Origin: Acidobacteriota bacterium
Lineage (GTDB): Bacteria; Acidobacteriota; UBA6911
Assembly: GCA_963664705.1 (NCBI GenBank)
Contig: OY761556.1
Span: 3,520,001 to 3,584,000 of the forward strand
DNA length: 64,000 nucleotides
Reading direction: 5' to 3'
The notes under the pieces were generated by a model. The model saw only the letters and a list, made by a program, of their open reading frames with translations, searched no databases and was not told the origin of the DNA. This document shows, piece after piece, positions 4,944-33,668 of this stretch. Position numbers and translations under genes: made by a program. Numbering within the stretch: position 1 is the first letter of the stretch; every line of letters begins with the position of its first letter.

Positions 4944-6629
4944 CTATCTCCACTTATCGATCTGGACGGATTGGCTTGGCACCATGCCGCCCATGCTGAA
5001 GTAGTTGTTGTTCGATCCGCCCGTAACGACTACGGTGAAGGTTCCGCCGGCGTAGCGCTGTCCGCTGTTGGGTGGCGGCGGGTTGGGATTGGATCCGGCT
5101 TTGACATAATCCGTAAATTTTTCGACGGAGTCATACCCGGCATCCTTCACAAAATTGGCGATTGGAGGACTCAGAACCGCAAACGTTCCAAACAGCGAAC
5201 CATCCTGCGAGTTGTAAATATCTTTGATGATCTTGGGGTAGTTCATCTGTGTGCCCCAAACGTTGTCGGCCCAGTTCTTGGCAGAGAGGACGCCCCAACC
5301 GTTGAACAGAGTAATGATATTTTCATTCTTCTTGAAGCCGCGTCTGACGGAGAGCGGCTGAAATGGAGAATCCCGTTCATTTTCGGCAATGATGATGTTG
5401 ATCAGATTCATGGGATTTCCGACGGTCCCCATATAGGTCGTCCCTACCTTGCCGCAGTTCCCGCCGTTGATGGAAAGCAGGTTCCAGGCTCGTCCAATGG
5501 TTGTATTGGCATGGGCGTAGGGCCCCATGGCACCGATTTCATAGTTCAATCCGATCTCATCGCGAATTGAACCATTAATGACCGCACCGGATACAAAGCC
5601 GTTATCCGAAACGGAAATGCCTTCCATTCCGGTAGAGCCGATCGCGAGAATAATCGGGAAATATTCCGGCGCCGCCCCTGCCATCACCGCGTTGACGGCA
5701 GCATCTTTGACCGTATAGGTCCAAGTCTCGAAGACGCCAGCAGTCGGCCCCATCTTCCCAAGCACTTCGTCAGGGCGATGACTGGTCGCCTTCAGCATCT
5801 CATTGACCTTTTCCTCCGTCGGCATGACTACAGGCAGAAAGTCGGTATATCGCTTCTGAAGAAACACTTTCTGCAGTTCGTCAGCCGTGCCACTGAATGT
5901 GGCGGGTCCCTTGTCGCGAACCATCTGCCCGGATTTCTGATCTTCCGCGGATAGCGGTTTGGTGAGTTTGTCGACAATTTCCTGCATCACCGGCTTGCCG
6001 GTGAGCGGGTTGTTCCCCAGAACAACATCGCGGCGCAACTGTTCACGCGTCTTTCCCCAAATTGGGCCGCGGATATATTGGATGCGCATGCCCGGCATCC
6101 CCGCAGTTAAGGCAACTTCCTTTAATTGCTTATCAAAACTTGAAACCACGATGGGAACGGCGGGCTTTTTAATGGTGGATTCGAAGTCGATCGAAAGCCT
6201 GGTGACCCCAGGCGCACACACGCTTCAATGCCCGAGGGCGATGACCATGGCATCGGCCTTCTGTTTCATCTCGGCCCACAGCGCGGGATCCGGCTGAGCC
6301 ATGAATGTGGCTTTTTTCACATAATGGAAATTTGTTTTCGGATAAGCTTCTTTGAATCCTTTTTCAAATTCAAAGAGCAGATTATCCGATCCGGGATATC
6401 CGTCATCAACCAGATAGATAGTCTTGCCATCCATGGTATTCAGGCGAGGCGCCATCGGCTTCAATTCCAGCGGAGGTGGCGTGCCCAAGGGGTTGAGCAC
6501 CGTAATAACGGATTCTGCAGACTTCTTTGCCGCAGTCTTCACCTGAGCCTGGCCGCTCAAAATCGAGTAACTGCAAAACAGGCACAGGCACAGTACTGCA
6601 ATGAAAAACACAGTCGTATGCCGCTTCAT
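4944..6629 (-). CDS. Exported UGSC-like selenoprotein paralog 1 (561 aa; TGA at 6227-6225 read as Sec, U135, motif GH-U-SVC)
   Basis: ORFs 6225..6800 and 4944..6221 are in the same frame, separated only by TGA-AGC. Read-through gives DAMVIALGH-U-SVCAPGV. ATG at 6629 follows AAGGAGG; signal peptide; hairpin after the UGA; three paralogs have the same TGA. Confidence 0.85.
6197..6213 (-). promoter_or_regulatory. Putative bacterial SECIS element (paralog 1)
   Basis: mRNA UGA-N11-GCCUGG[GGUCA]CCAGGC: 6-bp stem starting at +12, loop beginning with G. Confidence 0.7.
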
Positions 6630-6812
6630 TCCTCGATCCTCCTTGTTGTAGTTTGACGAACTCAAGTGATTCAAGCCGGAGTGCGAGTGGCTTTCATCGC
6701 TTGGCATACTGCTTTGAGGCAACCAAATGCTTGATAAATCACGGTTATCAAATGCGTTTCCATGCTGCAAATCCCATGCACAGCATAGAAAATTTGACAA
6801 AATGCCGATGCG

Positions 6813-7499
6813 CTATTGCAGGACGTACTCTCCGCCCGGCTTAACGGCAACCGCTTTTCTCCCTGCCGCCTCGACCTTTTTGACGAATTCATCCGGGTCG
6901 GCATTGATGACATCGAAGGTCTTGTAATGCATGGGAATATTGACCCCGGCCCTAAGATAACCGGTTGCATGAACGGCGTCGTCGATGCCCATGGTGAAGT
7001 TGTCCCCGATCGGGAGCAATGCGGCATCCAGCGGACCCCAGACCTCGCCAATCATCCGCATATCCATAAACAGGCCGGTATCGCCGGCGTGATACACCTT
7101 TTTGCCGCCCATCGTCAACACGATCCCCACGGGGTTGCCCAGTGCTTCGCCGTTCGGGCCGGAGGAACCGTGATGGGCAACCGTCAGTTTTACGTGGCCG
7201 AAGGAAAACTGGTGGCCGCCGCCGATATGCATCGGATGGCCTTTACAGCCCTGGGCACCGAGGTAATTGACAATTTCAAAATTGGATACAACAAGGGCTC
7301 CGGTTTTCTTTGCAATGGCAGCGGCGTCCCCCAGGTGATCGCCATGGCCATGAGTCACGAGGATGGCATCCAGTCTGGTAAACTGATCCGCCGTGACATC
7401 GGCCAGAGGGTTCCCGCTGAGAAATGGGTCGATCAATACCCGATGAGTCCCATCGTCGAATTCCCAGCAATCGTGTCCGTGGTATCGCAGCTTTAGCAT
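6813..7499 (-). CDS. Metal-dependent hydrolase, metallo-beta-lactamase fold (UPF0173-like)
   Basis: LIDPFLSGNP, THGHGDH, YHAGDTGLF, LLPIGDNFTMG, IPMHY motifs. Confidence 0.9.
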   Translation of the reverse strand: MLKLRYHGHDCWEFDDGTHRVLIDPFLSGNPLADVTADQFTRLDAILVTHGHGDHLGDAAAIAKKTGALVVSNFEIVNYLGAQGCKGHPMHIGGGHQFSFGHVKLTVAHHGSSGPNGEALGNPVGIVLTMGGKKVYHAGDTGLFMDMRMIGEVWGPLDAALLPIGDNFTMGIDDAVHATGYLRAGVNIPMHYKTFDVINADPDEFVKKVEAAGRKAVAVKPGGEYVLQ

Positions 7500-7536
7500 A
7501 GCAACATCTCCTTTGTTTGATCCTTGGACAATTATA

Positions 7537-8517
7537 CTATCTCAGGCCCTGAACAATTCTCTTCTCAAAAGCTTCGCGGATCAGTCGGTCATCGCGCGAA
7601 GAGGCAGCGATTCGGATCTGCTCACGGCTGTCGGGGTTGATGCCATACACGGCCAAAGCCTCAATCGCCGCAATGGCGTTATCCCGATGCTCGCTCCGTA
7701 GGACTTCAAGGAGCATGGCAAAAGCATCATTGCTGCGGGTCAGGGCGATCGGCAGGAGCAGGGTACGCTTGATCGATGGCAGGACATTGCGCTCCCGGAA
7801 ATCCCGCAAAATTCCGAAGGCTTCCTTGAGCCGGGAATTCCCGATGGCCAGGGCGGCCTCATCCGCGACCTGTGGGTCCTCCGCCTCGAGGAACTGCTCG
7901 GCAAATTTCAGTGAGCGTGCCGGAGAAATGGCCAATAAGCCGCTCAGGCAATCGCCCAGAATTTCGGGCTCCGTGTCGCCCTGGAGGGCCTTCATCCGCA
8001 ACAGCATCTCGCTCACTTCGCGACCCAAATCCGTAAGAACTCTGACCGCAGCACGCCGCGGTGCGGTCTTGCTGTCCATCAAAAGGGTAACCATTTCGCA
8101 CAACAGCTCAGGATGTCCCAGGCGGTACAGCCCGAAGGCGCATGCGGCGCGCAGAAGCTCAGCCGTATCGACGGGCGGGCCAAAAGAAGGTTCCAATTGA
8201 ATGTGACGAATGCCCCGCAGCAGCACATCAGCGTCGGGGCAATCAAGAGCGTTCAGGGTTTCAACCGCCGCCAGTTTGGCATGGCAGCCGGGATCCGTTT
8301 TGACGGGATTCTGAAGATATCGATGAAACGCGGCAGCAATCTCAGGTTTCAGATCGCGCAAGCCCCATTTGGCGGCGATCCGCGCTCCTTTTGCAGCCAA
8401 TAGACTGCTGGAACCGGCCAATGCCTGGCGTAACTCAAGGAGCCCGTCTGGAGACGGGTTCTCCAACTCGAGCCGCTTTAGTCGGGCCAGTTTCTCATCA
8501 AATGATTGCCGGGCCAT
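7537..8517 (-). CDS. HEAT-repeat protein
   Basis: Leu/Ala-rich helical repeats (DPGCHAKLAAVETL, RRAAVRVL, VADEAALAIG, AIAAIEAL). Confidence 0.7.
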   Translation of the reverse strand: MARQSFDEKLARLKRLELENPSPDGLLELRQALAGSSSLLAAKGARIAAKWGLRDLKPEIAAAFHRYLQNPVKTDPGCHAKLAAVETLNALDCPDADVLLRGIRHIQLEPSFGPPVDTAELLRAACAFGLYRLGHPELLCEMVTLLMDSKTAPRRAAVRVLTDLGREVSEMLLRMKALQGDTEPEILGDCLSGLLAISPARSLKFAEQFLEAEDPQVADEAALAIGNSRLKEAFGILRDFRERNVLPSIKRTLLLPIALTRSNDAFAMLLEVLRSEHRDNAIAAIEALAVYGINPDSREQIRIAASSRDDRLIREAFEKRIVQGLR

Positions 8518-8579
8518 AACGCTGGTATAATGCAGGAAAAATCAGGAAAGGTAAATCTTTCCAAGGTGTCGCGGGTTTC

Positions 8580-8624
8580 TGATTCCAGATTCCAGATTCC
8601 AGTGCAGATTGCAGATTCCAGACT
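8580..8624. repeat. Heptamer tandem repeat (CAGATTC)n
   Basis: gattccagattccagattccagtgcagattgcagattccagac in the intergenic region. Confidence 0.7.
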
Positions 8625-8665
8625 TTCGTTCGCGCTCTTACCGTCGCTGTCTTCTTATCCGCACT

Positions 8666-11545: not shown

Positions 11546-11794
11546 GCTTGCCTTCTCCCGAGAGGGCGTATGAGCAGTGGCTGTCGCCAGGATCCACAAA
11601 ACTTGCTAAGGCATAGCTATGCCTTCATCAATACAAGAACGCAAATAAGTGGAGGTCGCCTACTCAGTGCTGCTGATTTTTTGTCAGGCTTTACCCGCTT
11701 GGGTTATCGACATTTTCCGTGTAACGAATTAACAGGAATACAGAGGAGCGAGCAATTGCCCTTTCTCAAAAAAGGTGGACGAAGGGGACGTCCC

Positions 11795-12277
11795 TTAAGA
11801 CTGCCAGTAGGTGCGGTCGAGCGTGCGGTATTGGATAGCCTCGGAGACATGGCGGGCAAGAATCTTGTCCATGCCGTCCAGGTCGGCCATGGTCCTGGAG
11901 ACGCGCAGAATGCGGTCATACGCGCGCGCGGATAAACCAAGCTTTGTGATGGCATTCTCCATCTGTTTTTCCGACTCGGCATCCAGACTGCAAAAACGAC
12001 GAATCGTGCGCGCTGTCATCTGGGCGTTGCAGTAGATGCCAAAAGCCTCCAGTCGTTTGCACTGGGCATTCCGCGCGGCCAGGATGCGGCCACGAATTAC
12101 CGTGGACTCCTCACATTTATCATCCTGCGCCAATTCCTTGTATTTGACGGCCGGAACCTGGATATGTAAATCGATTCTGTCGAGCAAAGGCCCGGACACT
12201 CTTGCCAGGTATCGCTGAATCAGCGGCGGCGTGCAGGTGCAGTCGTGCTGCGTATCGCCAAAATACCCGCACTGGCA
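11795..12277 (-). pseudogene. comM: Displaced 3' fragment of comM (direct repeat of 19414-19896, one boundary of the island)
   Basis: 483-bp copy of the comM 3' end with about 7 mismatches by eye; begins at the CQCGY codons and has no 5' part. Confidence 0.9.
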
Positions 12278-13533: not shown

Positions 13534-16500
13534 TTAGTTTAGGTTCGTTCCATGACAATGCTCCCTTAGCTTGTCATCCCAATAGCCACTTGCATCAAGC
13601 GTATTCTCATCCAATGATTTCTGCGGATTACTAACCCATCCCAATACTGAGGCGATAGCAATATCTCCACTATTTAAGCCAATATGAATGCCCTCGTGTA
13701 AAACTGTTGCCCCCATTTCAACTGACAAGAAAACCGCGGGATCAAAAGCCGGTTTCCAGAGATCAATGGTCCACGTGTCCAGATTTGCAGTGGCCGTGGC
13801 ATTTTCTTGCCATTTATGATGGAATTGGTTAGGGTGTGAGACAATATTATAATCAAATTGCTGGAAGTCTGAAAAACGCTGATTTGCGTAGTACTCTCCC
13901 TGATATTTGTATATCGAATTGAAAAGTCCCATAACAAAGGACCCACAATCAGAGCTGATGTCACTAACCCATGATTTTGCGATCGATTCACCTGAATCAA
14001 CGAGTGTTTTCACAGGATCGGCCGGAATCGCTGGGATCTGTATTACTGGCTGAGGCGGTTGCATGCTATAAGCAAAGGCATACCAGTACAGTGCACTTCG
14101 TGCCATGAAATCGCTAAAATCAACTGGAGGGTTGTATTCGCTGGAACCAAGCCATCCAAGCGGGTTCCAAAACTTTCCATCCGCATCAACCCTATTTAGA
14201 GGATCATTTCTGACGTACGCGTACTTGTTCAGCGACTGCGGGTCGTAGATGTGCGCCGTCAAAGGATCCGGCGAGGTCCATCGCATTAGCGAGGTATTGT
14301 AGTACCTGGCACCGAAGTCCTTCAGACCTGTCTCCTCATCCACCTTGTGGCCGGGATATTGATCCGAGCCGCCGGAACCAAATGCCCTGGAATAAAAGCC
14401 GCTATCAACGATCTGGCTTCCGATTGTAACAACCTCCTCCTGCCGGTGATTCCTTCCCGGCCATTTGAGATTATCCACCACCGTGTAGCCAAAGCTGTTG
14501 TTCGTATAGCCCCTGGTGCGCCGCGCAACAAGCGCCGAGTTCATATAGATATTGTTCGTATATGTATTTTCATACGTCTGCCACGACGCGCTCTCCACCT
14601 TGTATTCGGCAAGGATTTCATTCCCGTTCCCATAAACATACGAATAGCTAACCGAGCGCTGTTCCCCATAATAATAATAGTTCCAGCTCTTTTTCACCCT
14701 GCGGCCCAGCGCATCGTACCGGTACGCTCCCAGCAACGCGCTATCCGACGTGCGATTCACTTGCCTGATCAGGCTGTTGGCATTGTAAAGGTACGAATTG
14801 GCTGCATCCTGAAGCTGGTTGCCCGACTGATCATAGTAAGATGCATACGCTGCAAGCCGGTTGTTCTGGTCATTGGCGGTCCCACTCACGTTCCCGTACC
14901 TGTCATAGCTCCAGTTGCTGCTCCACTCTGTTCCGTTCGCCGACTGCAGAGTTTCCGCCGACAACCGCCCCAATCGATCGTACCCATACGTCGACCATTT
15001 CGATTCCAGGCTATTGCCGTAAGCATCTTTTTTCGTGTAGTCGACCCGAGAGATCCGGTTGGATAGCGTGTACGAATAATTCAGGTCATATTCGTGGGGA
15101 GTCCCCCACATGCTATTCGGAACCGTTATCCGGATGATCGAAAGCCTCCCATAACTATCCGTAACATGTTCTTCCGAGCTGGTTCCGTAAGAAATCAGCG
15201 AAACCGATCCATCCACCAGCGCGTAGTCGACATCCGTGACATAGGTTCGGCTTGTCCCGGAAATGACAGTATCCACTATTCCCGTCGCTCGTCCGATTGG
15301 ATCGCGCGTGTATGTGATCTCATTGCCGTCAGGATAGGTCATACTTTGTAGATCCTTCTTCGAGCATCCGCAGCCAGCCGGCGTGTAGCTATAGTTTACA
15401 GGATAATTTGTGGAGTCCATACGCATGATCTGCTGCGTCACCCGGCCTCCCTGGTCGTAGCTCCAGCTATAACCGACACTCTCTCCCGTAATCTGAAGAC
15501 TGCTGTTGACCGTCCAGGCGCTCGTCATTCGCCCCTGCCCGTTTGTTATCAGACCTATCAGACTCGAACTCGATTCATCGTAACTCATCAGTGACCATGG
15601 AGTGCCGTCCGAATAGGACGTAACCAGCAACCGGTTCAGAGCATCATAGCTGTAGCCCGTGACGACACCCCGGGCATCCGTCTTCTGCGTCACGTTCCCG
15701 TTATCATCATAGACAAACGTTACCGTTCCGCTCTCGGGATTGGTTTCCGCTATCTTTCTGCCCAGGCTGTTGTATCCATAGGTCCTCACTTGAACCCCCT
15801 GCAGGATTTGTATCAGCCGGCCCGGAATATCATAGGAATATACGGTCTCAGGTCCCCAGTTCCCGTTGGAATCCTCCTCGATCACCTTTAGAATCTGCCC
15901 GGACTCATTGTGTTCCGTCCTTTTTCTTCGTCCCTCCTGATCGGTCGCTGTGGTTACGTTTCCCACATATTGATACGTTATCTGGCCGCCCGTTGCCGGG
16001 CTTATGCTGGTAATCCTGCCCAGCACATCATAGCTGTAGGTCGTAAACGCCGCCGTGCCCCCACGGCTGGGCAGCCACTTCTTCGTGGCCCGGCCATGAG
16101 CATCGTAGTCCGCTTTTTCATAAATGCTGTTTTCCGACGGGATCTCCTTCTGCGTTTTGATCGTGTTGCCCGAAGGATTGCTGTCAAAATAGGAATAACC
16201 CGATGAGTTGTTGGTGGTTACTTGGTAATCCTGATCATCATAAGAAAAATACGAATTTCCGGTCGGCGCCGATTGATTTACTTTTCTATTGAGCCCGTCA
16301 TAGGCATTGGTAACCTGGGCGCCGTTGGGGTCCGTCGTCGAATACAGATTCCCGGTCCACGCCGTACCAAGAAAACTCTCCCACTGGTACTGCGTCGTGT
16401 GATTCAGCGCATCGGTCGACGAGGCCGGATAGGGACCGACGGTATAGGAAATCGTGGACTGGCTGCCTTTGGGATCAACCTTCCTCACCACATTGCCAGC

Positions 16501-18291
16501 GATATCATATTGGGCATGAGACATAATCCATCGGGACTGCTCCTTGTACAGCGCTCCCGCACTGGTCGCGTTTCCCCGCGTCAAATATGCCGTCCAGTAT
16601 CCGGAATTGTGATTAACCGGATTATAGGCCATCGCCACTAAAGGATAAGCGCCATATTCGTCATAGGCGGTCTGTGTCCGGGTCAGCTCGACATTACCTG
16701 CGTTTCTTGTCGATACGGCCGACACCAGGTTGGTCAATCCCTGCGCAACATATTCCGGATGCGTCTCGTGCCAGTACTCCATTGCCGTTCTTCGAAGCAC
16801 CGAACCGCTGAACCCGGTTTCGACGGTTTCCTTCACATTGCCGGTCCCGTCGGCGGCGTAGGTCGTTGCCGTTTGCGTCGTTTTCCCATCGTCCAGCGTG
16901 GTTGTGGCAGACGTAATTCGCGGGTTCAGAACAAAAGTCTTCAGCGTATCGTCCTGACTCCAGGAATAACTCTGGGTTCTCAAAACAGTCTGCCCGTTAT
17001 AGGTTTTCCGCGTGACCGAGGTCGGCATGCCGTCAGACCAATTTGCTCCCGATGAGGTGTAGTTCAGGTTATAAATGGTTCGCCCGTCGATATCCGCCGC
17101 TACCTCAACAGAAGAGGGGTTGGATTTCGTCTGGTCAACGCTGTAGCTGATGGACCAGGTGGTGCTGGTTGTCGTCCCATTATTGTTAACGTACTCCGTC
17201 TTCTGAGACACCATTCTCTGGGGACGCCAGTTTGGAGTGCCGCCATCATAGATGCTGTTTGTTCCATAAGAATAGGCGACCCTGTCCCGGCTCGAGGTGG
17301 ATATCAGCGTCCATTGATAGGTATTATAATCATAGCCATACTCGCTGACGGAGTCGGTCACGACGGCCAGCTCGCCAAACTGATTGTACTGAAACACTTG
17401 TCCGAGACGTGTATTGCTCAAGCCTCCGCCATTAATTCCCGCCATCCATATCGAACTCAACACCTTTTCATTGGGGCCCGGGCTCTGAACCGTATAAGGA
17501 GACGGGAAGGACGGCGAAAGCGACGGTGTCGCGTATTGAAAATTAATCCATATGGGATAGCTCGCATGCATCACCCGGATGCTGCTGAGAAATCCATCCC
17601 CGCCATAGAAGAAAGTCATCTGCGGCACAGCCGTGTAAGGGTAGGTCGTTGTGTCGTATGAATTTCCCAGGCTGTCGTCAATCGAGGCCAGTTTCCCGGT
17701 GCCGGGCACATAGGTTGCAAATATCTGGTTTCCGTTTCGATCCCGAACTTCCGTTGCGTAGGAATTGGCCCCCACGGTATTTCCAAAAAACAGCTTTGTG
17801 CCTCCGACCATCGTCGCCACATTCGGATTGCCCGGCGTCAGCCGTATATAGGTGGAATCGACAGACCTCCAGTCGCCGCGTCCATAATCGGCTATCTCGT
17901 GCGAACTGCCGTCTGACATGACAAGTGTATAGCTGGATCTCCCTTGGACAAGGTATGGAAAGCCAAGCCGCCACCCCAATCCCACGGAACTTCCCAGTTC
18001 GGACAACCCCATCAGCGTGGTGCCGGTTCGCGTCCAGATCTTGCTGTTATAGGCCAATGACAGGGACAGATTCAAGCCGGCTCTGCCCGGTCGCGTCGGC
18101 AACGGCCTGCTGAAAACAATATTTCCGTTCACCAGGTTGATTTGTCCAAGTCCGCCCAGATAGGGAACAAATGAATACATCCCCTGCGCATTCATGCAGT
18201 CATAGGTTAATTCGGTTTCAATAAATGCGGTTCTTGTCGCGATGGGAAAAGTCAGGAATGCAATCAGAATGAGTAGGATTCGTTTTGTCAT
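13534..18291 (-). CDS. RHS/YD-repeat polymorphic toxin with signal peptide and HExxH C-terminal domain
   Basis: YD repeats (YSYDALNR, YRYDALGRRVKK), Rhs core DEETGLKDFGARYY...PDPL...YAYVRNDPLNRVDADG, then a low-GC C-terminal domain with VLHEGIH. Confidence 0.92.
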   Translation of the reverse strand: MTKRILLILIAFLTFPIATRTAFIETELTYDCMNAQGMYSFVPYLGGLGQINLVNGNIVFSRPLPTRPGRAGLNLSLSLAYNSKIWTRTGTTLMGLSELGSSVGLGWRLGFPYLVQGRSSYTLVMSDGSSHEIADYGRGDWRSVDSTYIRLTPGNPNVATMVGGTKLFFGNTVGANSYATEVRDRNGNQIFATYVPGTGKLASIDDSLGNSYDTTTYPYTAVPQMTFFYGGDGFLSSIRVMHASYPIWINFQYATPSLSPSFPSPYTVQSPGPNEKVLSSIWMAGINGGGLSNTRLGQVFQYNQFGELAVVTDSVSEYGYDYNTYQWTLISTSSRDRVAYSYGTNSIYDGGTPNWRPQRMVSQKTEYVNNNGTTTSTTWSISYSVDQTKSNPSSVEVAADIDGRTIYNLNYTSSGANWSDGMPTSVTRKTYNGQTVLRTQSYSWSQDDTLKTFVLNPRITSATTTLDDGKTTQTATTYAADGTGNVKETVETGFSGSVLRRTAMEYWHETHPEYVAQGLTNLVSAVSTRNAGNVELTRTQTAYDEYGAYPLVAMAYNPVNHNSGYWTAYLTRGNATSAGALYKEQSRWIMSHAQYDIAGNVVRKVDPKGSQSTISYTVGPYPASSTDALNHTTQYQWESFLGTAWTGNLYSTTDPNGAQVTNAYDGLNRKVNQSAPTGNSYFSYDDQDYQVTTNNSSGYSYFDSNPSGNTIKTQKEIPSENSIYEKADYDAHGRATKKWLPSRGGTAAFTTYSYDVLGRITSISPATGGQITYQYVGNVTTATDQEGRRKRTEHNESGQILKVIEEDSNGNWGPETVYSYDIPGRLIQILQGVQVRTYGYNSLGRKIAETNPESGTVTFVYDDNGNVTQKTDARGVVTGYSYDALNRLLVTSYSDGTPWSLMSYDESSSSLIGLITNGQGRMTSAWTVNSSLQITGESVGYSWSYDQGGRVTQQIMRMDSTNYPVNYSYTPAGCGCSKKDLQSMTYPDGNEITYTRDPIGRATGIVDTVISGTSRTYVTDVDYALVDGSVSLISYGTSSEEHVTDSYGRLSIIRITVPNSMWGTPHEYDLNYSYTLSNRISRVDYTKKDAYGNSLESKWSTYGYDRLGRLSAETLQSANGTEWSSNWSYDRYGNVSGTANDQNNRLAAYASYYDQSGNQLQDAANSYLYNANSLIRQVNRTSDSALLGAYRYDALGRRVKKSWNYYYYGEQRSVSYSYVYGNGNEILAEYKVESASWQTYENTYTNNIYMNSALVARRTRGYTNNSFGYTVVDNLKWPGRNHRQEEVVTIGSQIVDSGFYSRAFGSGGSDQYPGHKVDEETGLKDFGARYYNTSLMRWTSPDPLTAHIYDPQSLNKYAYVRNDPLNRVDADGKFWNPLGWLGSSEYNPPVDFSDFMARSALYWYAFAYSMQPPQPVIQIPAIPADPVKTLVDSGESIAKSWVSDISSDCGSFVMGLFNSIYKYQGEYYANQRFSDFQQFDYNIVSHPNQFHHKWQENATATANLDTWTIDLWKPAFDPAVFLSVEMGATVLHEGIHIGLNSGDIAIASVLGWVSNPQKSLDENTLDASGYWDDKLREHCHGTNLN

Positions 18292-22945: not shown

Positions 22946-24688
22946 ATGAAAAATAGGCAACTCTTAGCATGCATTGCTGTCGTGATCATGGCAGCAGTGG
23001 CATTTGCCGGCTTTGCACCCGTGCAGGCACAGCAAAAGGCCACCGCCAAGCCCAAGATTACGGTGCTGAATCCCGCTATCGAAAGCAAGATGGCGGATCG
23101 CATACCACTTTCTCCTCGCCTGGACACGCTCGAGGGGAAGACACTGTACCTGGTCGATATCAACTGGGGCGGCCCCGAGGCAGCCTACAGCGTGTTTGAG
23201 GAAATGCAGGCCTGGTTTGCTCAAAACATGCCCAGTGTGAAAATCATCATCAAACGAAAAGCCGGATCGTACACCACAGACGATAAGCCGCTGTGGGCGG
23301 AGATCAAAAAGAATGGAAATGCCGCTTTGATCGGCATATCGGGTTGAGATGGCTGCACGTCGGCCGTGAGCCAACATTGCAGAAGTCTCGAGTTGATGGG
23401 CATTCCGACCTCAGGCGCAGCTGCTGCCAATATCGTGAGGTATGCGGTCGGGTATGATTTTGAATATACAAACGGCATGCCGATTCGCTATGTCGGATTC
23501 CCGTTCCCGGTAGCCGGACAGCCGAAGGCTGTTCACCACAAGTATGTTTTTGAAAGCAAAGATGTATTGACCGGCAAGCCGATGATGCAGGCCATCATCG
23601 ACAATCTTACAAAGCCGCTGACTGATAAGGAAAAGATCGCGGGAAAGCCTCCTGAAGCCAAAGTTGAGCCACGGCTTCTGCCTCCCGGTAACGAGGATGA
23701 ACTGCAGCAAGTCTTCAAGGATAATGATTGGACCGACTATAATCCCATCATTCTTCCGACTGAAGAACGAGTCGCTGCAATGCTGAAGGGAACCAGCCGA
23801 AAACCCACCGATAAAGTAAAAGAACTGAATTGGCCGGGCGGAAAGCGGAACCTCACAGTCGAAAAGGTTGCGGTCTGCGCCGTGATGGCGGGTGCAAAAC
23901 CGGAACACTTCCCCCTAATCCTGGCCCTGGCAACCGCACTTCCGTTCGGAAATTCGACAAGCTCCATGGCAAACATGATTCTTGTCAACGGTCCGATACG
24001 GAACCAGGTAAAGATGAACTACGGGCTGAACACCATGGGACCGCACAATGAAGTGAACGCGGTTCTGGGAAGATCCTTCACGTTGATGTCGAAAACCGCC
24101 GGAAATCTGCACTCCGGAAAAACGACGTTCAGCGGTCTGGGAAGCAACCTGCAATACAACAATGTGTGCTTCGCGGAAAACGAAGAAGCGCTGCCCGCAG
24201 GATGGAATCCTGTCCACGTACAGATGGGCAACAAGCCGACCGACAGCACTGTGACAGTGGCGACCGGCTGGTCCTATATCTCGAGCGTGGGTGAAGTGCA
24301 AAGAGGATATCCTCCACAGTTCCTGATGCGTGATTACATGCGATCGCTGTCCGGCATGGGCGGCACGGTAATCATGGATCCGTCCGTGGCAGCCCTGATG
24401 AAGGATGCCCAGGGATTCAATAGCAAAGAAGACCTGTCCAAGTGGCTTGCTCAGAATATCGAGAAGACCGTATCGTCCTATTGGGGCAATGGCGTGATCT
24501 CGACGATGTTTGCAACCATGGCGATTCAGGGACTCGAACCCTATGCATCCCAGAAGAAGATGCCCCCCGACACACTGATCAAGCCCTTCCAAAGGGTTGG
24601 AGTGGTTGTAGCGGGTGGCGGGCAGACCACCTGGTTTGTGACCGATTTTGGTCTCGGCCGGGGTGAACTGGTCGATAACTGGAAGTAG
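22946..24688 (+). CDS. Exported UGSC-like selenoprotein paralog 2 (580 aa; TGA 23345-23347 read as Sec, U134, motif SG-U-DGC)
   Basis: ORFs 22946..23347 and 23366..24688 are in frame. Read-through gives NAALIGISG-U-DGCTSAVSQHCRSLELMGIP; signal peptide; homologous to the other three paralogs but the most divergent. Confidence 0.83.
23350..23382 (+). promoter_or_regulatory. Putative SECIS element (paralog 2)
   Basis: After the UGA: lower stem CUGCA/UGCAG and upper stem GUcGGC[CGUGA]GCCaAC starting at +12. An alternative fold UGGCU-G-CACG[UCGGC]CGUG-AGCCA is also possible. Confidence 0.5.
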
Positions 24689-24942: not shown

Positions 24943-26682
24943 ATGAAGTTGCGTACCGCAGTAATTGCAATTTTGTGCCTGGGTCTTTGTCTCAGTTTCT
25001 CTGCACTGAGCATTCAGACCTATGCGCAAGGAAAGAAGGCAGCTCCGGCTGGTAAACCGGTGGCCGTGGCCAAGATTACGGTACTCAGTCCGATGGGTAC
25101 ACCGCCCCCGATTACCCTCAAGAACCAGGCACCGCGCCTGGATACGCTTGACGGCAAAACCATTTATCTGGTGAACACGGGATTTGTCGGAACTGAACGC
25201 CTGATGGAAGTCATGACGGAGTGGTTCAAGGAAAATCATCCCAAAACCACCATCGTCAACAAAAGAAATCCTTCAATGGATCAGCCCAATAAACAGCTGT
25301 GGGCTGAGCTCAATGAGAAGGCTGACGGCGTCATCATCGGGCTGGGTCATTGAAGTGTTTGCGCGCCTGGGGCGGTTCGCCTCAGCATTGACATCGAATC
25401 CAACTTCAAGAAACCCTCAATCCCTCTCATCCTGTCTGATTTCGCCAAACAGGAAGCCGAAGTCGCTCTTACCAGCGGTATGCCTGGCCTCCGCATTCAA
25501 TATTTCCGTGGCCCGGTTTGGGGCAAAACCAACGAACAGCTCAAGAAACAGATTATTGAAGGCCTCAATCCGGTAACAGGAAAACCGGTGATGCCAGAAA
25601 TCATCGAAAAACTCACCAAACCTCTGACCGCCGAGGAAAAGAAGACCGGGGATATCAAGGTGGATAAAGGCCCGGCCACTTTCACCGGCACGCCGGATGA
25701 ACTCCAGAAGCTGTTCCTTGACAAACGAATGACCGATTTCATGCCCATCATTCTTCCGACCGAAGAGAAGGTTGAAGAAATGCTGAAGGGCACCAGCCAC
25801 CGTCCGGACGAGCTTCTTGGCAAAATGAACCCGGGCTCCGAAGCTGGTGACGTTTGGACCTATACGGTCAAAGATGCCGCCGTTAACGCCGTTATGGCCG
25901 GTGCCAAACCGGAATACTTCCCGGTTATCCTGGCACTCGGTTCGACTGGTTCGCCGAGCGTCAATGTGTCCGATAACGGCTTCATGGCCGGTGCCGTCGT
26001 AAACGGCCCCATCCGTGACGAAATCAAACTCAATTACGAAATCGGCGCCGTGGGTCCCTATGCCCAGGCGAATACGACGATCGGAAGAGCCTGGAACCTG
26101 CTGTCCATCAATGGCGGGAACTGCGGCAAAGTCGGGACGACCTACATGGGCACCGTAGGAAATGCCCACAACTATGTCAGCCCTATCATTGCCGAAAACG
26201 AACGCGATTCTCCATTCAAGCCGCTGGCCGTACGCCGCGGATTCAAGGAGAATGAGAATATCGTCACCCTGTTCATGGGCTGGGGTATTCTTTCCGCGAA
26301 AAACTGGAAAGCCGATGTTTGGGGATCCAACATGAATTATCCCCAGATCATCAAAGACATTTTCAACCAGCAGGATCCCATGTTCGGGACGATCGCCGTC
26401 CTGAGTCCGCCTATTGCCAATTTCGTGAAAGATGCCGGCTATGATACAGCCGAAAAATTCACGGAATGGGTAACGGCGCCTGTGAATCCCCCTGCAGCTC
26501 CGGCTGGCGCTCCTGCCGGCGGGCCTGCCGGTCGCGGCCCCGGTGGACCTGGCGGACGCGGCGGCATGGGCATGATGGGCGGCGCATTCAGCGTCGTCGT
26601 CACTGGCGGCACCAACAACAACTACTGGATGATGGGCGGCATGAGGCCTGGTCAGTCCATTCAGATTGATAAATGGCGGTAG
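24943..26682 (+). CDS. Exported UGSC-like selenoprotein paralog 3 (579 aa; TGA 25351-25353 read as Sec, U137, motif GH-U-SVC)
   Basis: ORFs 24943..25353 and 25480..26682 are in frame with no other stop between them. Read-through gives DGVIIGLGH-U-SVCAPGAVRLSIDIE; GGAGG RBS and signal peptide. Confidence 0.87.
25367..25385 (+). promoter_or_regulatory. Putative SECIS element (paralog 3)
   Basis: CUGGGGCG[GUU]CGCCUCAG: 8-bp stem (one GU pair) starting at +14 after the UGA. Confidence 0.6.
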
Positions 26683-26729: not shown

Positions 26730-26730
26730 G

Positions 26731-26768
26731 AAAAACGGCAGCGGGTATCGTCACCTGCTGCCGTTTTT
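26731..26768 (+). terminator. Rho-independent terminator after paralog 3
   Basis: AAAAACGGCAGCGG...CCTGCTGCCGTTTTT with a T-run. Confidence 0.75.
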
Positions 26769-26975
26769 ATTTTGTCGCGACAAGTCAGGCAACGGAGCCC
26801 ATTGGAGTACCGGCGTCTCGCCCAATGCCATGGCATTTTTCCTTCGCCCCTTCAGCATGGGGCCGGTCGTTATGGCCAAAACATTGGTGACACTGACCGA
26901 CAGTGATCCCGTTTTAGGAGACTATTACTTATCTCAACGTCCGGACCAACCTCCTGCCATTGAAAGGAAAACTGC

Positions 26976-27131
26976 ATGCAGGAGAAAAAATACACCGGGA
27001 AACAAAGTAATAACAAACGCAAAAGTACGGGAGTGGTTAACCACACTCCCGTGCTAAACCCAAATGCTGCCGGCATTGACATTCATCCCACAAAGATCTT
27101 TATTGCCGTGCCTCAAGGTAGAGATGACAAG
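26976..27131 (+). pseudogene. IS110-family transposase N-terminal fragment
   Basis: PVLNPNAAGIDIHPTKIFIAVP resembles the IS110 DEDD N-terminal GIDI motif; similarity is lost after about 50 aa. Confidence 0.65.
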
Positions 27132-27316
27132 CTGATAAGCTTGCACGAATACTATGGCACCTTGTTTCCTTCAATGTACCCTATGATTCCTCGGTGTTTT
27201 TTGACGCGGCACAAAAGTATAAACAACGCTATAAGAAGAACCTTATAAAACGAATTGAATCTATGGGCTATCGTGTATCCCAAGATCCAGCCGACCCAGC
27301 GTTAGCACCCGCAGTT

Positions 27317-27533
27317 CCTTAGGAGGGCTTTTGGAGCTGCGGATATACCCCCCGGGCTCGCAAGCTCGCCCGGGGCTGCTATCTTTCGCACCTCGCGCTG
27401 GATCTTTGTTCCAATTGTTCGGAGCGCTGTGACCCGAACGAAGCAACAGGCCCGGAGGGCCGAAAGCAAGTAGCCAGGGGTGAGCGCAGCGAACCCCTGG
27501 TAGAATAGCGAAAAAATTGGAGCCCTCCTAAGG
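27317..27533. repeat. REP/BIME- or MITE-like composite palindromic element
   Basis: 13-bp terminal inverted repeats CCTTAGGAGGGCT / AGCCCTCCTAAGG; internal hairpins CCCCGGGC..GCCCGGGG and CCAGGGGT..ACCCCTGG. Confidence 0.6.
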
Positions 27534-27619
27534 CGCTCGATGCAAATCGGGAATCATAACTATATTTGTTCCAAGTATTTAACTAAACAGAGAAAAAGCA
27601 AAAAATAAATCGAGTTCCC

Positions 27620-28116
<497 letters not shown>

Positions 28117-28120
28117 CAAC

Positions 28121-28153
28121 AAAAAAAGCCAGCAGTAATAACTGCTGGCTTTT
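28121..28153 (-). terminator. Rho-independent terminator of the TonB receptor gene (intron target site)
   Basis: AAAAGCCAGCAGT-loop-ACTGCTGGCTTTT, with a T-run on the minus strand. Confidence 0.85.
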
Positions 28154-28177
28154 CTGCTTTCAGAGGTTGGCTAGATC

Positions 28178-31100
28178 TTAGAACAGCAGCTTCAATCCCA
28201 TCCGCATTGTTCGACTGCCGCCGCTGATCTGCGTGAAGTTCAAAAATAGTCCGGCTCCGGTTCCGTTAACCGTCTTGGTGACAGATCCGGGACTATCGAA
28301 ATTCTCATGATTCAGCAGGTTGAAAATTTCCGCCCTGTATTCCAGTCTGACCTTTTCGGTAAACCGGAAAGTCTTCAGGGCATTCAGATTGACGCTGGAA
28401 TAACCGGAAGTATACACGCTGTTTCTCCCAGCCGTGTTTGCTCCGGGTACGCTGTATGAAGTAACGGCAATCCAACGCACCTGATCGGAGGTCGTGCAAC
28501 CATAGCCGTTCGATGCACTGGCTGTGACATTCAGATCCCGCAACCCCGAAGGGCAGGCGGAAGCCGATGCAGCCCCAACCGGAACGGTAACGGCGCGAGT
28601 GTCCACGGGAGCATTCGGATTTCCTACATCCGGACGCAGTGCGGTCGCATCCGCTCCCCCTTCATACATTCGGTCAAATCCATTGAGAACAGTGTAAGGA
28701 ACTCCCGAACGGAAGGTAAGGGTACTGGCGGTACTCCACCCACCCAGAATTTGTCCCAGGATTCCGCTCTTGGGTCCGCGAATATCCCACATCAAAGATG
28801 TCGACCACATATGACGTCGATCGTTATCCGATGGCCCGTAGTCGATGTTGCCGCTCAGCCCCATACGCTCAACCAGGATGGGAGAGATGGACGCATTCTG
28901 CGGGGAACCGTTCGTAGCAAAGGTCTCGGTCCCGGTATCCATATTCCGTGACCAGGTATAGTTACTGTCGAAAGACAGTCCACCCACCGGAGTATTGCTG
29001 AACCTGCGGCGAATACCCAGCTGCATGGAGTTGTAATTGCCATTCACGAACGAAGCACGGATCTGGCGAGCACCGATGGTTGAGACTATGCGGGAACCGA
29101 ATCCGTTCAGAGCCGCATTGGGCAAATAGGGATTCATCGCAACGGTCCTGAATTGCTTCCGTGTAACCGAACCCACATAGGCAATATCAAGTACCGTCTT
29201 CCCCAAAATCTCCCGTTGAATGCCCAGTGACCAGCGCTGCGTATACGGATTGCGAATATTCGCGTCAAACTGTGACGAAGCACTGGACAGATCGTCGACC
29301 GCAGTCGGAACCAGGGATGGCAGAACAGCCGAAAGGTTGCTTAGCCCTCTAGGTGTTGCCGCCGTCGACGAGGATGGAACGGGAACATTGGCCAAGGCGT
29401 TGGGTGAACCGGCCGCCATGTTTGAGAGAAGGTTGTTGTACCAGGTATCATAGGTAAGCTGATACCCGCCACGAACCACCAGCTTGCCTTTGCCAAAAAG
29501 CTTGGCAAGCAGTTTGTTTGCAAGCCAGCCACTCTTCGGATCCGGATTCCAGGCAAACCCGAAACTGGGCCCGAAATTGTTATTATCCGGATTTACCTTG
29601 GTCGAGGTTGTAATGGCGCCTGGCGTGTTGCCTGTATAGGCCGGATATTTGAAGCTATTGGCGGGCTGCCCGAAATTCTCGTAGCGAATTCCGTAATTCA
29701 ATGTGAGATGCTGCGTGACCTTCCATCCATCCTGGGCAAACAGAGTCCAACGGAACAGATTCGGATAGTAGATTCCGCTGCCAAATGTTATCGACACAGG
29801 ACCGCTGGATGTGCCGGCGTAATCGTCAATCCAGTTTGCCATGCTTGTCACACCGCCAGGCACCAGGGTGCTGCTGGAGGTGGAGAAGTAGGAAGCTGTG
29901 CCACGATAGTTGAAGGGCGCCTGCTGTCTTGCCAGCTGGCGCAGAATATCTCCACCGAAGCGGATGGAATGAGTCCCCCTGATTGTGGTGGCCGTATCCT
30001 GGTATTGATAGGAGTTTGAAACTCGCCCCTGCGGATACGTGCTGCTGACTCCAATGGAAGATAATCCGGTCAGGCTTATCTGCGGCAGCGTATTGCCTAC
30101 GGATTCGGGATTTGCCAGGGGATATCCCAAATTCACCCTCTGGAAGTTGAATCGGACTTCATTCGTTGTGTGATTCGAAATCATGTAGGTATGGTTCACG
30201 GCCACACCAAAGCTCTTTTCCGAATAGAGAGTACTGAAATCCGGCGTGAAGCCGATGGAATCCGGAGAATTCGTCGTTCGGTTGTAGAGCCATCGAACCA
30301 TGAAATACTGCTTATTGGAGATCTGGTGGTCAAACCGGATCTGATGATTGTTATTGAGATAGACGGTCGGCGCAAACAAGGTTGCAATAGCGGTTTCCAC
30401 GGTCTGCCCCGTGCGGGCTCCGCCGCTGCAGGAAGTCGAAGCCAGGCTGGCCGGCAAGGCAATGCTGTACGCGGACGCACTGTTGGCCGGATTGCCACGC
30501 AAACTACCCAGGAAGCCAAGATAGGACGCCACATTGGCACAGGTGGTCGCCAATGGTTTCAATACCTGGTACCCAGCCTCGGTGGGCACGCGGTAGCTTG
30601 CCTGGGTTCCGCCATCCGAATAACGGTCCCACTGACCAGCAACGAAAATGAAGGTCTTGTCTTTTCCATTGTAAATGTGGGGAATGACGACAGGAGAACC
30701 AAAGGTGAAAGCCGGGATATTCTCCTTGAATACCGGCTTGAGCGGATTGCCGCTGCCGGGAACATATGCAAGCCGCTGAGTGCGAGTGGATGCATTCAAA
30801 CGCTGCGATCGGTAAACCCAGGCCAAAGTACCGGCAGGGTTGTTGGTTCCCGACTTGATAATCTGATTGATGACGGCGCCGCCAGCGCGTCCGAATTCAG
30901 CGCTGAAATTGGAGGTTTGAATGGCCACTTCCTGCAACGCATCATTGTTGGTCAGGATCAGGCCCGGTCCGGCAACCGAAATATCGTTATTTTCCACGCC
31001 ATCGATCATGTAGTTGTTTGAACGGGCGCGGGCACCGTTTACCGATCCCACACCGCCGCCAACACCTGTCTGGTTAGTCGTAACGCCGGGGAGCAGCAGG

Positions 31101-31573
31101 ATCAGGTTCGTGGAATCCTGTCCACTGATCGGCAGCTGTGCCAGGGATCGCTCGGTGATATTTGTCCCGCGTTTCTCTTCATTCAGCTGGACCTCTGCAG
31201 CCTCGCCCTTTACCGTAACGGTTACATTCTCAGTCGCCACGGCCAAAACTGGATCAACGGCCGCCGTCTGGTTGGCGGAAACCTTGATCTGTTTAACCAC
31301 AAATGTGCTGAAGCCCGTCATCTTGACGGTCAAATCATAATTTCCTAAATCCACGGCGTCGAAACGAAAGATTCCAACCTCGTTGGTAACTTCCGACCGG
31401 GTGGAATTGGTTTCCGTCCGGGTCAGCTCTACCGTGGCTCCAGCGACAACGCCACCCTGCTGATCCGTGACCACGCCTAAGACGGTTCCACGGCTTGTTT
31501 GTGCGTAGCTATTGCCCAGTAAACTAAGCAACAGTACACACACAAACAAGAAGATAGCCCTTTTCCCAATCAT
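28178..31573 (-). CDS. TonB-dependent receptor (Oar-like, N-terminal carboxypeptidase-regulatory-like domain)
   Basis: Signal peptide, GTVLGVVTDQQGGVVAGATV, SVNGARARSNNYMIDG, SAEFGRAGGAVIN, C-terminal RAEIFNLLNH...RTMRMGLKLLF. Confidence 0.92.
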   Translation of the reverse strand: MIGKRAIFLFVCVLLLSLLGNSYAQTSRGTVLGVVTDQQGGVVAGATVELTRTETNSTRSEVTNEVGIFRFDAVDLGNYDLTVKMTGFSTFVVKQIKVSANQTAAVDPVLAVATENVTVTVKGEAAEVQLNEEKRGTNITERSLAQLPISGQDSTNLILLLPGVTTNQTGVGGGVGSVNGARARSNNYMIDGVENNDISVAGPGLILTNNDALQEVAIQTSNFSAEFGRAGGAVINQIIKSGTNNPAGTLAWVYRSQRLNASTRTQRLAYVPGSGNPLKPVFKENIPAFTFGSPVVIPHIYNGKDKTFIFVAGQWDRYSDGGTQASYRVPTEAGYQVLKPLATTCANVASYLGFLGSLRGNPANSASAYSIALPASLASTSCSGGARTGQTVETAIATLFAPTVYLNNNHQIRFDHQISNKQYFMVRWLYNRTTNSPDSIGFTPDFSTLYSEKSFGVAVNHTYMISNHTTNEVRFNFQRVNLGYPLANPESVGNTLPQISLTGLSSIGVSSTYPQGRVSNSYQYQDTATTIRGTHSIRFGGDILRQLARQQAPFNYRGTASYFSTSSSTLVPGGVTSMANWIDDYAGTSSGPVSITFGSGIYYPNLFRWTLFAQDGWKVTQHLTLNYGIRYENFGQPANSFKYPAYTGNTPGAITTSTKVNPDNNNFGPSFGFAWNPDPKSGWLANKLLAKLFGKGKLVVRGGYQLTYDTWYNNLLSNMAAGSPNALANVPVPSSSTAATPRGLSNLSAVLPSLVPTAVDDLSSASSQFDANIRNPYTQRWSLGIQREILGKTVLDIAYVGSVTRKQFRTVAMNPYLPNAALNGFGSRIVSTIGARQIRASFVNGNYNSMQLGIRRRFSNTPVGGLSFDSNYTWSRNMDTGTETFATNGSPQNASISPILVERMGLSGNIDYGPSDNDRRHMWSTSLMWDIRGPKSGILGQILGGWSTASTLTFRSGVPYTVLNGFDRMYEGGADATALRPDVGNPNAPVDTRAVTVPVGAASASACPSGLRDLNVTASASNGYGCTTSDQVRWIAVTSYSVPGANTAGRNSVYTSGYSSVNLNALKTFRFTEKVRLEYRAEIFNLLNHENFDSPGSVTKTVNGTGAGLFLNFTQISGGSRTMRMGLKLLF

Positions 31574-31922
31574 GCCTCACTTCTCCTTGAAGTAATTGCT
31601 ACTGCATTCAACCACACATTCCCTTACCCGAGGCGCTTGACAACAGAATACGCTGCAAAAAAAATCTCGCTGAATCCCCAGGCGCGCAAAAGGGTTCAAT
31701 ATTTCTATAACTTAAACCAAAAATCAATGAATAATTGGCGAAGGATCTTGGCTATATCCAGCGAAAACAATTCACTAAAACAATGCATACAAATACTTTA
31801 TATGTATTTCCACAGATTATTTCGCATATAAAACCAAGTCATTGTATTGATACATTTACTAATGCATTTACACTATTTTGAATAAAAACGACCTGGAGTC
31901 TTGAGGCGGGACAGACAAAAAA

Positions 31923-31956
31923 AGTCGGCAGCAGGTTTTGCGACCTACTGCCGACT
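31923..31956 (-). terminator. Terminator after paralog 4
   Basis: AGTCGGCAG..AGGT / ACCT..CTGCCGACT hairpin next to an A-run (T-run on the minus strand). Confidence 0.7.
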
Positions 31957-31988
31957 GAGGACAAAACGACCGGCACCTGACGACGGAG

Positions 31989-33668
31989 TTACCGCCAGTT
32001 ATCGATTTGAACGGTCTTGTTGTACTGCAAACCGCCAATACTGTAGTAATTGTTGTTGGTACCGCCGGTAACGATAATTTCCATAGCGTTCGGCTGGAAC
32101 CAGGGCTGACCGCCCGGGGAATCCGGAGCCATCAGGAATTTCTTGAAGTCATCAACAGAGTTGTACCCTGCAGTCTTCACGAAATTTGCGATTGGCGGGC
32201 TAAGAATGGCTGTGGCACCAAAAAGGAATGGAGCCTGGGTTTTGAAAATGTCCTTGATGATCTGCGGGAAATTCATTTCTTTTCCCCAGTTGTTCGCGCG
32301 CCAGTTCTTTGCGGAGAGAACGCCCCAGCCTTCAAACAGACTGACCACGTTTTCGTTCTTCTTGAAGCCTTTTCGAACCGAAAGCGGTTCCCACGGAGAT
32401 TCCTTCTCATTCTCGCCAAACACAATGTTAATGGCGTTCATCGGATTCCCTACGGTCCCCATGTAGGTCGTTCCGACTTTGCCGCCATTGCCAAGGTTGA
32501 TGGACAGAATGCTCCATGCTCTTCCGATTGTCGTATTGGCATGAGCGTATGGCCCCATGGCGCCAATACCATAATTGATCCCGATCTCATCGCGGATAGG
32601 GCCATTGATGACCAGCGCACCGACAAACGAATTATCGGAAACGGAAATGGCTTCCTTTCCGGTAGCGGCCACAGCCAGCAGCAACGGCATATATTCCGGC
32701 TTGCAGCCAGCCATAACAGCGTTTACGGCAACGTCTTTTACCGTATATGTCCAGTCTTCGAAATAAGTACCGGTTTGAGTCGGCGACATTTTGCCAACCA
32801 TTTCATCCGGACGGTGACTGGTTCCCTTCAGCATGTCATCGACTTTCGCGGCCGTCGGCAGAACGATCGGCATGAAGTCGGTCATGCGCTTATCCATGAA
32901 CATCTTCTGCAGATTGTCCGGCGTATCCGTAAAGGTCGCCGGTCCCTTGGTACGATTAATCTCACCGGTCTTCTTTTCATCGGCGGTCAAGGGCTTGGTA
33001 AATTTGTCGACAATTTCCTGCATGACCGGCTTGCCGGTGATCGGGTTGTTGCCGTTAATCACATCACGTCGCAACTGTTCGCGCGTTTTTCCCCACACCG
33101 GGCCACGAACCCACTGGGTCCGGAGGCCGGGGAGCCCGTCATTGCGTGCTTTTTCAGTTTCCTGTTCGTAGAATTCGGAAAGAACGAGAGGGACAGCAGG
33201 CAGATTCATCTTGGTTTCGAAATTCACGGAGTGGCCGACAACTGCCGGCGCACACTGGCTTCAATGGCCCATCCCGATGATGATCCCATTGGCCTTCTCT
33301 TTCATCTCGGCCCACAGCTTCGGATCTTCCGAGTCAAATCCACCGCCACCTTTTCTTTTGAAAACAACGGTGGTTTTGGGGTAATTGGCTTTAAACCAAT
33401 CCACCATTTCAAGCAGGAGATTATCCCCTCCCACAAACCCGTCATCAACGATGTATAAGGTCTTGCCGTCCAGGGTATCGAGGCGCGGCGCCATCGTCTT
33501 TAACTTTATCGGAGGCGGAGTTCCCAACGGATTTAATACCGTAATTTTAGCCTCTGCCGGCTCCGCCTTTTTCGCCGGTGCGGCTTTTTTTGCTTGCGCA
33601 TAGCCTATCTGCAGACAGCAAAACAGGCCTATGCACAGAAACGCAACTATTACTGTGCGCAATTTCAT
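31989..33668 (-). CDS. Exported UGSC-like selenoprotein paralog 4 (559 aa; TGA 33263-33261 read as Sec, U136, motif GH-U-SQC)
   Basis: ORFs 33261..33701 and 31989..33227 are in frame. Read-through gives NGIIIGMGH-U-SQCAPAVVGHSVNFE; ATG at 33668 after GGAGG; signal peptide. Confidence 0.87.
33230..33256 (-). promoter_or_regulatory. Putative SECIS element (paralog 4)
   Basis: UGA-N11-GCCGGC[AGUU]GUCGGC upper stem starting at +12, plus lower stem AGUG/CACU. Confidence 0.65.

Follow-up and report, generated by a model that had tools for sequence, protein, structure and literature searches.

Predicted exported UGSC-family selenoproteins with a fused partner domain form a large paralogous family in an Acidobacteriota bacterium

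Introduction

In the genome of an Acidobacteriota bacterium (lineage UBA6911; GenBank assembly GCA_963664705.1), four genes lying within 64,000 nt of contig OY761556.1 (positions 3,520,001 to 3,584,000; this whole stretch is called the window) are each interrupted by an in-frame TGA. This raises the question of whether the TGA terminates translation or encodes selenocysteine (Sec, U), which kind of protein would be produced by read-through and what such a protein might do. An earlier note, made from the sequence of this DNA, had read the four loci as exported selenoproteins of an expanded family with a fused uncharacterised domain. Here, the loci are analysed in the context of the entire genome (6.89 Mb, 98% complete) and of its relatives. 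They belong to a set of 35 paralogues in this genome, 31 of which have TGA at the same position and four Met, Leu, Asn or Ser. The UGSC family and its fused architecture are already known; what stands out is the massively expanded and predicted exported form.

Four genes with a single in-frame TGA

If TGA is read as U, each gene becomes one open frame: paralogue A (4944..6629, minus strand; 561 amino acids, aa), paralogue B (22946..24688, plus strand; 580 aa), paralogue C in tandem with B (24943..26682, plus strand; 579 aa) and paralogue D (31989..33668, minus strand; 559 aa), the copy used for modelling. Exactly one internal TGA, the inferred selenocysteine codon, is present in each, namely U135 in A (6225..6227, minus), U134 in B (23345..23347, plus), U137 in C (25351..25353, plus) and U136 in D (33261..33263, minus), and it is followed by 426, 446, 442 and 423 codons, respectively. 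All four TGAs fall into one alignment column with a Cys at position +3 (Cys138, Cys137, Cys140 and Cys139 in A to D), the contexts being GH-U-SVC in A, SG-U-DGC in B, GH-U-SVC in C and GH-U-SQC in D. Paralogue B is the divergent one of the four, with 31% identity to A.

A purine-rich stretch lies upstream of the ATG of each gene, and no start codon matched by a Shine-Dalgarno sequence was found within 78 codons 3' of any of the four TGAs. By a hydropathy heuristic, all four N-termini have a basic start followed by a hydrophobic stretch, predicting signal peptides, in A of the Sec-pathway type. The coordinates, the read-through frames with one TGA each, the common column with its Cys and contexts, the lack of a convincing ribosome-binding site (RBS) and ATG at the junction and the signal peptides had all been claimed in the earlier note and are confirmed here.

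Listing open reading frames (ORFs) with translation table 11 cuts each of the four genes in two, and the public databases contain almost only the C-terminal halves of about 410 aa, with full-length proteins in only 2 of the 120 best matches; the suspicion that standard gene callers mis-split these genes was therefore justified. Contigs from one public run span three of the four TGAs without variant letters, yet they probably derive from the source sample and are not independent.

Selenocysteine or stop codon

Several lines of evidence suggest that UGA in the four genes encodes selenocysteine, which we regard as very likely. The genome encodes two copies each of selA, selB, selD and the tRNA-Sec gene selC, all scoring over curated cut-offs. 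TGA is an ordinary stop codon elsewhere, ending 1752 of 5405 genes in our own gene calling, and a tRNA-Trp(CCA) is present. Because in all 31 interrupted paralogues the interruption is a TGA at one and the same column, with Cys at +3, although TGA ends only 1752 of 5405 genes, chance is excluded as an explanation.

Moreover, the column was surveyed across many phyla, in 77 loci of GTDB genomes that were the best of 590 relatives. Among the 91 rows that include the column (it is missing from six further rows, which are frameshifted or truncated at the locus edge), TGA occurs in 76, TGC or TGT in 13 and a codon for another residue in two; TAA or TAG was never found in these 91 rows. TGA and Cys codons alternate among close relatives, and C-x-x-C is present at the column in 28 of 81 full-length representatives, so that homologues with Cys in place of U, which the earlier note had suggested looking for, do exist.

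Furthermore, the mRNA downstream of UGA is predicted to carry the expected type of structure. The stretch of 36 nt following UGA folds more stably than synonymously shuffled versions (mean z -0.92 for 31 genes, compared with -0.46 to +0.66 at seven control offsets). The model of the bacterial selenocysteine insertion sequence (bSECIS), as given in a recent review, places the loop 16-37 nt after UGA with a G in the first two loop positions (PMC13188914). Of the 31 genome paralogues, 20 fit it; among the controls, 119 of 525 positions inside genes and 61 of 400 genuine TGA stop codons do so. In related loci the model fits 59 of 75 TGA genes vs 1 of 13 Cys genes, with nearly identical encoded residues; these genes are kin and hence not an independent sample.

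In the window, three of the four genes fit the strict model. The predicted hairpin of A (6197..6213, minus) has a 6-bp stem and a 5-nt loop with G at the first position, 18 nt after UGA; that of C (25365..25386, plus) has an 8-bp stem and a loop 22 nt after UGA; that of D (33231..33253, minus) has a 6-bp upper stem and a 4-nt loop with G at the second position, 18 nt after UGA. The predicted hairpin of B (23353..23382, plus) has its loop 18 nt after UGA and G at the second position and falls short of the strict consensus, its upper stem having only 3 bp. Taken with the sel genes and the TGA/Cys column, these hairpins support the selenoprotein reading of the earlier note. Of the outcomes that would have spoken against it, neither a genome lacking Sec machinery nor homologues with TAA or TAG at the column was encountered.

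As to the selenocysteine machinery itself, one selAB/selD/selC set is clustered at contig positions 3066000-3085000 and the other is scattered. In the clustered set, SelD carries a fused CMD domain and a selenoprotein resembling arsenite methyltransferase is also encoded; the set adjoins corrinoid methyltransferase genes. A third tRNA-SeC proposed by ARAGORN (72 nt, contig 1625651-1625722) has no RF01852 match, lies inside an rtcR/rtcA/rtcB locus and was not counted.

Identity of the two domains

The N-terminal domain belongs to the UGSC family. Pfam PF24696 is passed by all four proteins (80.5, 41.1, 67.3 and 65.8 bits for A to D; gathering cut-off 25) and by all 35 genome paralogues, in agreement with the resemblance seen earlier. 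The domain comprises residues 44-201 in A, 40-195 in B, 47-203 in C and 44-202 in D, and in each case the Unknown_1 domain follows. However, the four proteins stay far below the cut-off of 125 of the NCBIfam equivalog NF041046 (27-57 bits), and the literal U-G-S-C motif is absent from them; U-GSC occurs in 7 of the 31 Sec paralogues of the genome. No thioredoxin-family signature of the DsbA/TlpA type was matched in the four proteins in Pfam or NCBIfam at E values up to 1.

A UGSC/Unknown_1 fusion was described by Zhang and Gladyshev (2008; PMC2398784, Fig. S1A). The fused domain of about 400 aa seen in the earlier note is thus real, but not new. The likeness consists in U-x-x-C and in a C-terminal domain with AVN.VMAG..PEY.P and NG motifs; the Unknown_1 motifs of that figure were matched by eye, no profile scoring being involved. 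The C-terminal motifs named in the earlier note are mostly present in the window genes, with NGSIR in A and NAVLGRSF instead of NTTIGRAW in B as inexact cases. Compared with the 2008 description, the copies studied here differ in their predicted signal peptides and in occurring by the dozen per genome; the Cys highlighted there in Unknown_1 is mostly Ala here, and the N-terminal domain is modelled as flavodoxin/CheY-like, whereas a thioredoxin-like fold was supposed (PMC2398784). In a 2026 review, UGSC is still listed as uncharacterised (PMC13188914). No published report of exported or expanded UGSC fusions was found, in a literature search that mostly did not extend to subscription journals.

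The segment around Sec has a second known relative. In a profile comparison, the N-terminal domain aligns with the Sec segment of GrdB/PrdB with an HHalign probability of 94% (E 1.4e-7, 61 columns, U on U); the GrdB/PrdB profile was built from 14 PF07355 matches, and the receiver-domain control consisted of one sequence only. On this profile evidence, the Sec segment of the family is homologous to that of GrdB/PrdB over about 60 residues. The resemblance to the GrdB/PrdB segment proposed in the earlier note is thereby confirmed; PF07355 itself has no match at E up to 1 in the four proteins and none in the genome. Further differences from GrdB/PrdB are the lack of any GrdE/PrdA match in the genome, a partner domain that showed no relationship in the comparisons made, a U-x-x-C not followed by a further x-x-C, and predicted export.

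Among other architectures, relatives with two Unknown_1 stretches and no UGSC match were observed, as well as one relative with the UGSC domain at its C-terminus. Longer fusions were not seen among proteins of 1169-3335 aa, the only range searched, which is weak evidence.

Predicted structure and domain interface

For the mature full-length D protein, AlphaFold2 gave a mean predicted local distance difference test score (pLDDT) of 91.8 and a predicted template modelling score (pTM) of 0.91, which supports the two domains forming one unit. The N-terminal domain (model residues 29-194) is matched by flavodoxin/CheY-like folds (Z 8.6-10.8, root-mean-square deviation (rmsd) about 3 Å, 112-149 residues aligned; best match Z 10.8, rmsd 3.2 Å, 126 aligned), and U-x-x-C is placed between the third strand and the next helix. 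The match list contains no thioredoxins, an absence that does not exclude them. A chain of the methyl-coenzyme M reductase activation complex (Z 10.1) is tied with many receiver domains and was not used as a relative.

The partner domain of D, Unknown_1 (residues 242-559; 31992..32945, minus strand), belongs to no Pfam or NCBIfam family and gives a confident model on its own (pLDDT 93.5, pTM 0.93). It has no clear match among solved folds: the best Z values, 5.2-5.3 over 74-77 residues, are lower than the 7-8 typical of unmatched models, although this is no proof that the fold is new. Nothing significant emerged when the PDB was searched by sequence. Class I fumarate hydratase, the best Foldseek row (E 3e-3, TM 0.24, rmsd 17 Å), was ruled out by a Z of 3.4 and an HHalign probability of 0.5. 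The domain has no conserved Cys; its conserved polar residues include the Asp of WTDG, an S-T-x-S loop, Asn-341, Arg-346, Asn-354 and Glu-382 (model numbering). The Thr of the S-T-x-S loop is found in 85% of 59 rows with U/CxxC, compared with 41% of 51 rows lacking Cys or Sec.

Two-chain docking of the domains of a natural Cys homologue scored 0.89 vs 0.34 for the best control; at least 90% of contacts are shared between runs, and partner pLDDT is at least 92. Among solved complexes, 116 of 157 pass the mark used, as against 2 of 215 for mismatched pairs; these rates apply only roughly here, where our own alignment was supplied. The predicted interface includes the N-terminal strand, Cys108, which is equivalent to U, and Ser315-Ser316 of the conserved loop; the U-x-x-C loop is accordingly predicted to lie against the C-terminal domain, one of the points that the earlier note had proposed to check. 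This supports, and does not show, a shared active site of U-x-x-C and the S-T-x-S loop.

A genus-wide expansion

That the family is expanded had been recognised, but four copies were far too few, and the expansion is a trait of the whole genus. At least 9 matches to the family are present in each of the 29 further genomes of the genus (range at least 9 to at least 29), and one relative has 58 UGSC matches, fragments counted; among 21 genomes of other genera of the same family, 17 have none and four have one or two. The divergence among paralogues points to an old and varied set, with a median identity of 33% and only 3 of 595 pairs above 90%. On a tree made by a quick method they are intermixed with genes of Desulfobacterota, Chloroflexota and others, and their nearest named relatives, among the best of 590, are Acidobacteriota metagenome-assembled genomes (MAGs). 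An export signal is predicted in 28 of the 31 Sec paralogues, 27 being of the Sec-pathway type (two with a lipobox) and one twin-arginine; three of the four non-Sec copies lack one.

Two selA genes are present in only 5 of 30 genomes of the genus, and selA itself in 46 of 50 genomes of the family; duplicated selenocysteine machinery was therefore rejected as the cause of the expansion.

The genome contains 11 further selenoprotein candidates, SelD and ten others, of which four exceed curated cut-offs (UshA-like, formate dehydrogenase, protein disulfide oxidoreductase and TrsS). Together with the 31 UGSC-family genes, at least about 42 selenoprotein genes are predicted. A first screen recovered 10 of the 31 known sites and a relaxed one kept 30 of 31 as candidates; the screens are thus incomplete and the total is a lower bound. 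It is below the 57 genes of the Olavius delta-1 symbiont and the 63 of a Methylomirabilota MAG (PMC13188914, PMC1976440). However, about three quarters of the selenoproteome belong to one family here, whereas the Olavius families, as described there, have 2-12 genes and UGSC is a single sequence. The 31 Sec copies, nearly all of which are split in two by gene callers, would roughly quadruple the predicted selenoproteome and imply a large selenium demand. The genome also encodes about 24 molybdopterin-binding oxidoreductases, 24 tungsten aldehyde oxidoreductases and 16 carboxylesterases, suggesting that batteries of multi-paralogue enzymes are a trait of this organism.

A separate clade of relatives, in Acidiferrales-type genomes, has twin-arginine signals, lies in tandem with Sec and Cys copies mixed and often adjoins PQQ (pyrroloquinoline quinone)-dependent dehydrogenases. 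Three more candidate exported selenoproteins of the genome are a UshA-like protein ending in a multihaem domain, a protein resembling thioredoxin and a DUF1573 protein encoded directly upstream of one UGSC paralogue.

Gene neighbourhoods and electron supply

A conserved operon was not found, the immediate neighbours being heterogeneous (107 neighbour proteins scanned). Among 53 loci lacking a signal peptide, 23 have a thioredoxin reductase (TrxB)-like gene within 4 kb, whereas none of the 24 loci with a signal peptide does; these neighbours score 254-308 bits on TIGR01292, under its cut-off of 343. The only TrxB-like gene found in the present genome is 54 kb from the nearest paralogue. A three-domain DsbD and a candidate exported Sec-thioredoxin are encoded in the genome and offer a reduction route for exported copies. 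In one of 30 genomes of the genus, the position of the second Cys in the membrane domain of DsbD is occupied by an in-frame TGA, which could mean a Sec-DsbD but may be an error.

Tungsten aldehyde oxidoreductase genes lie within 7 kb of 8 of 35 paralogues (1.6 expected, p 0.0002, chosen post hoc among 12 tests). In four relatives the count is 10 of 117 vs 6.6 expected (p 0.13), and Mo- and W-enzyme genes also cluster together; the link was rejected, and these regions were treated as shared accessory regions.

Proposed function and its alternatives

On balance, the exported two-domain proteins are probably periplasmic selenol-dependent reductases, an assignment made by analogy. GrdB-type enzymes use the selenol to attack a polarised bond in the bound substrate, and GrdB expands into substrate-specific paralogues, eight in Cloacibacillus porcorum (PMC10838667). 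In the proposed mechanism, the SECIS hairpin would recruit SelB and the chain would exit via the Sec translocon; the U-x-x-C loop would lie at the interface with the partner domain, as would the conserved S-T-x-S loop. By analogy with GrdB/PrdB, the partner domain would bind and polarise a small substrate, the selenolate would attack it and the Cys at +3 would resolve the adduct, forming a Se-S bond. In cytoplasmic relatives, a thioredoxin-reductase-like flavoprotein might re-reduce this bond; in exported copies, DsbD together with a periplasmic thioredoxin might do so. The paralogues probably differ in substrate, in line with the periplasmic reductases of different substrates suggested in the earlier note, and the expanded aldehyde oxidoreductases and esterases of the genome probably do so as well.

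Several observations weigh against this assignment. Cys is absent from the column in 47 of 81 full-length representatives, a set biased by split Sec genes and a few misaligned rows, and neither Cys nor Sec is found there in 4 of the 35 paralogues; the scaffold therefore often exists without the redox residue. The signal-peptide heuristic is also passed by 20% of all long proteins genome-wide, and 11 of the 31 Sec paralogues do not fit the SECIS model in its strict form. Direct contact between Cys108 and Ser315 is not in the interface list. Of the 23 TrxB-linked loci, 22 are one clade and the last was not placed, so that the contrast amounts to about one evolutionary event and is a lead rather than a statistic. 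DsbD occurs in 48 of 50 genomes of the family, with or without the expansion, and the gene neighbours give no substrate clue. A GrdE/PrdA partner (PF09338) has no match in the 98% complete genome, and the C-terminal domain shows no resemblance to two GrdE-like sequences (probability 0.3, a weak template).

A more far-reaching version of the reductase assignment, which we put forward tentatively, is that one genus of anaerobic, Acidobacteriota-related bacteria might deploy between 10 and about 50 selenium enzymes of a single family in its periplasm. These might be one-chain analogues of GrdB/PrdB, with a new fold replacing the pyruvoyl subunit, that jointly respire or reductively cleave various extracellular organic substrates with electrons exported via DsbD. 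If true, this would apparently be the largest single-family selenoprotein expansion in a bacterium.

Rather doubtful, in our view, is that the proteins are true exported selenoproteins whose selenol has a ligand role or is a nucleophile without redox function, either binding or passing on a soft metal, a metalloid, sulfur or an electrophile, or working in a hydrolase or transferase with covalent catalysis. The Ser, Ala, Met or Gly at the column in many homologues, the rhodanese-like and UshA-like (seleno)proteins adjoining some related loci and the generic flavodoxin/CheY-like fold would suit such a role, whereas the Cys at +3 kept in all 31 Sec copies, the TrxB-like gene next to the cytoplasmic clade and the fact that the nearest characterised relatives of the Sec segment are reductases speak for redox chemistry. 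General periplasmic thiol-redox or repair enzymes acting on proteins (disulfide reductase or isomerase, repair of sulfoxides or sulfenic acids, peroxidase) are unlikely: U-x-x-C, the export signals and the DsbD of the genome are what would be expected of them, but there is no thioredoxin-family match, the motif is predicted at a large domain interface, and housekeeping leaves unexplained why one genus has 9 to about 50 divergent copies and its neighbours 0-2. Very improbable is that UGA is a real stop, yielding two proteins or pseudogenes, or encodes Trp or Gly under another genetic code: halves of about 410 aa are listed as separate proteins and both domains occur elsewhere alone or in reversed order, but the Pfam UGSC domain extends across the TGA, no RBS-matched start is near the junction, close relatives have either TGA or a Cys codon at the column and nothing else, hairpins go with TGA and not with Cys, and the normal use of TGA as a stop alongside tRNA-Trp(CCA) contradicts another code.

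The function of the putative reductases is testable: natural Cys homologues can be expressed without selenocysteine machinery, the TrxB-like neighbour would allow an NADPH-coupled assay, and the model names residues to mutate.

Other elements in the window

The region 27400-27530 of the window is an intergenic palindrome that is repeated about 100 times in the genome; it weakly resembles Rfam Acido-Lenti-1, under the gathering score. On visual inspection, the stretch 27620-28112 (minus strand) has the look of a group II intron's 5' part; it is a single copy without Rfam support and is inserted just after the terminator hairpin of a TonB-dependent receptor gene. At 13534-18291, a 1585-aa RHS-repeat gene with small downstream ORFs is present, and its region (13534-18291, 11795-12199) lies between comM and a second copy of the comM 3' end, the arrangement of a comM-integrated element.

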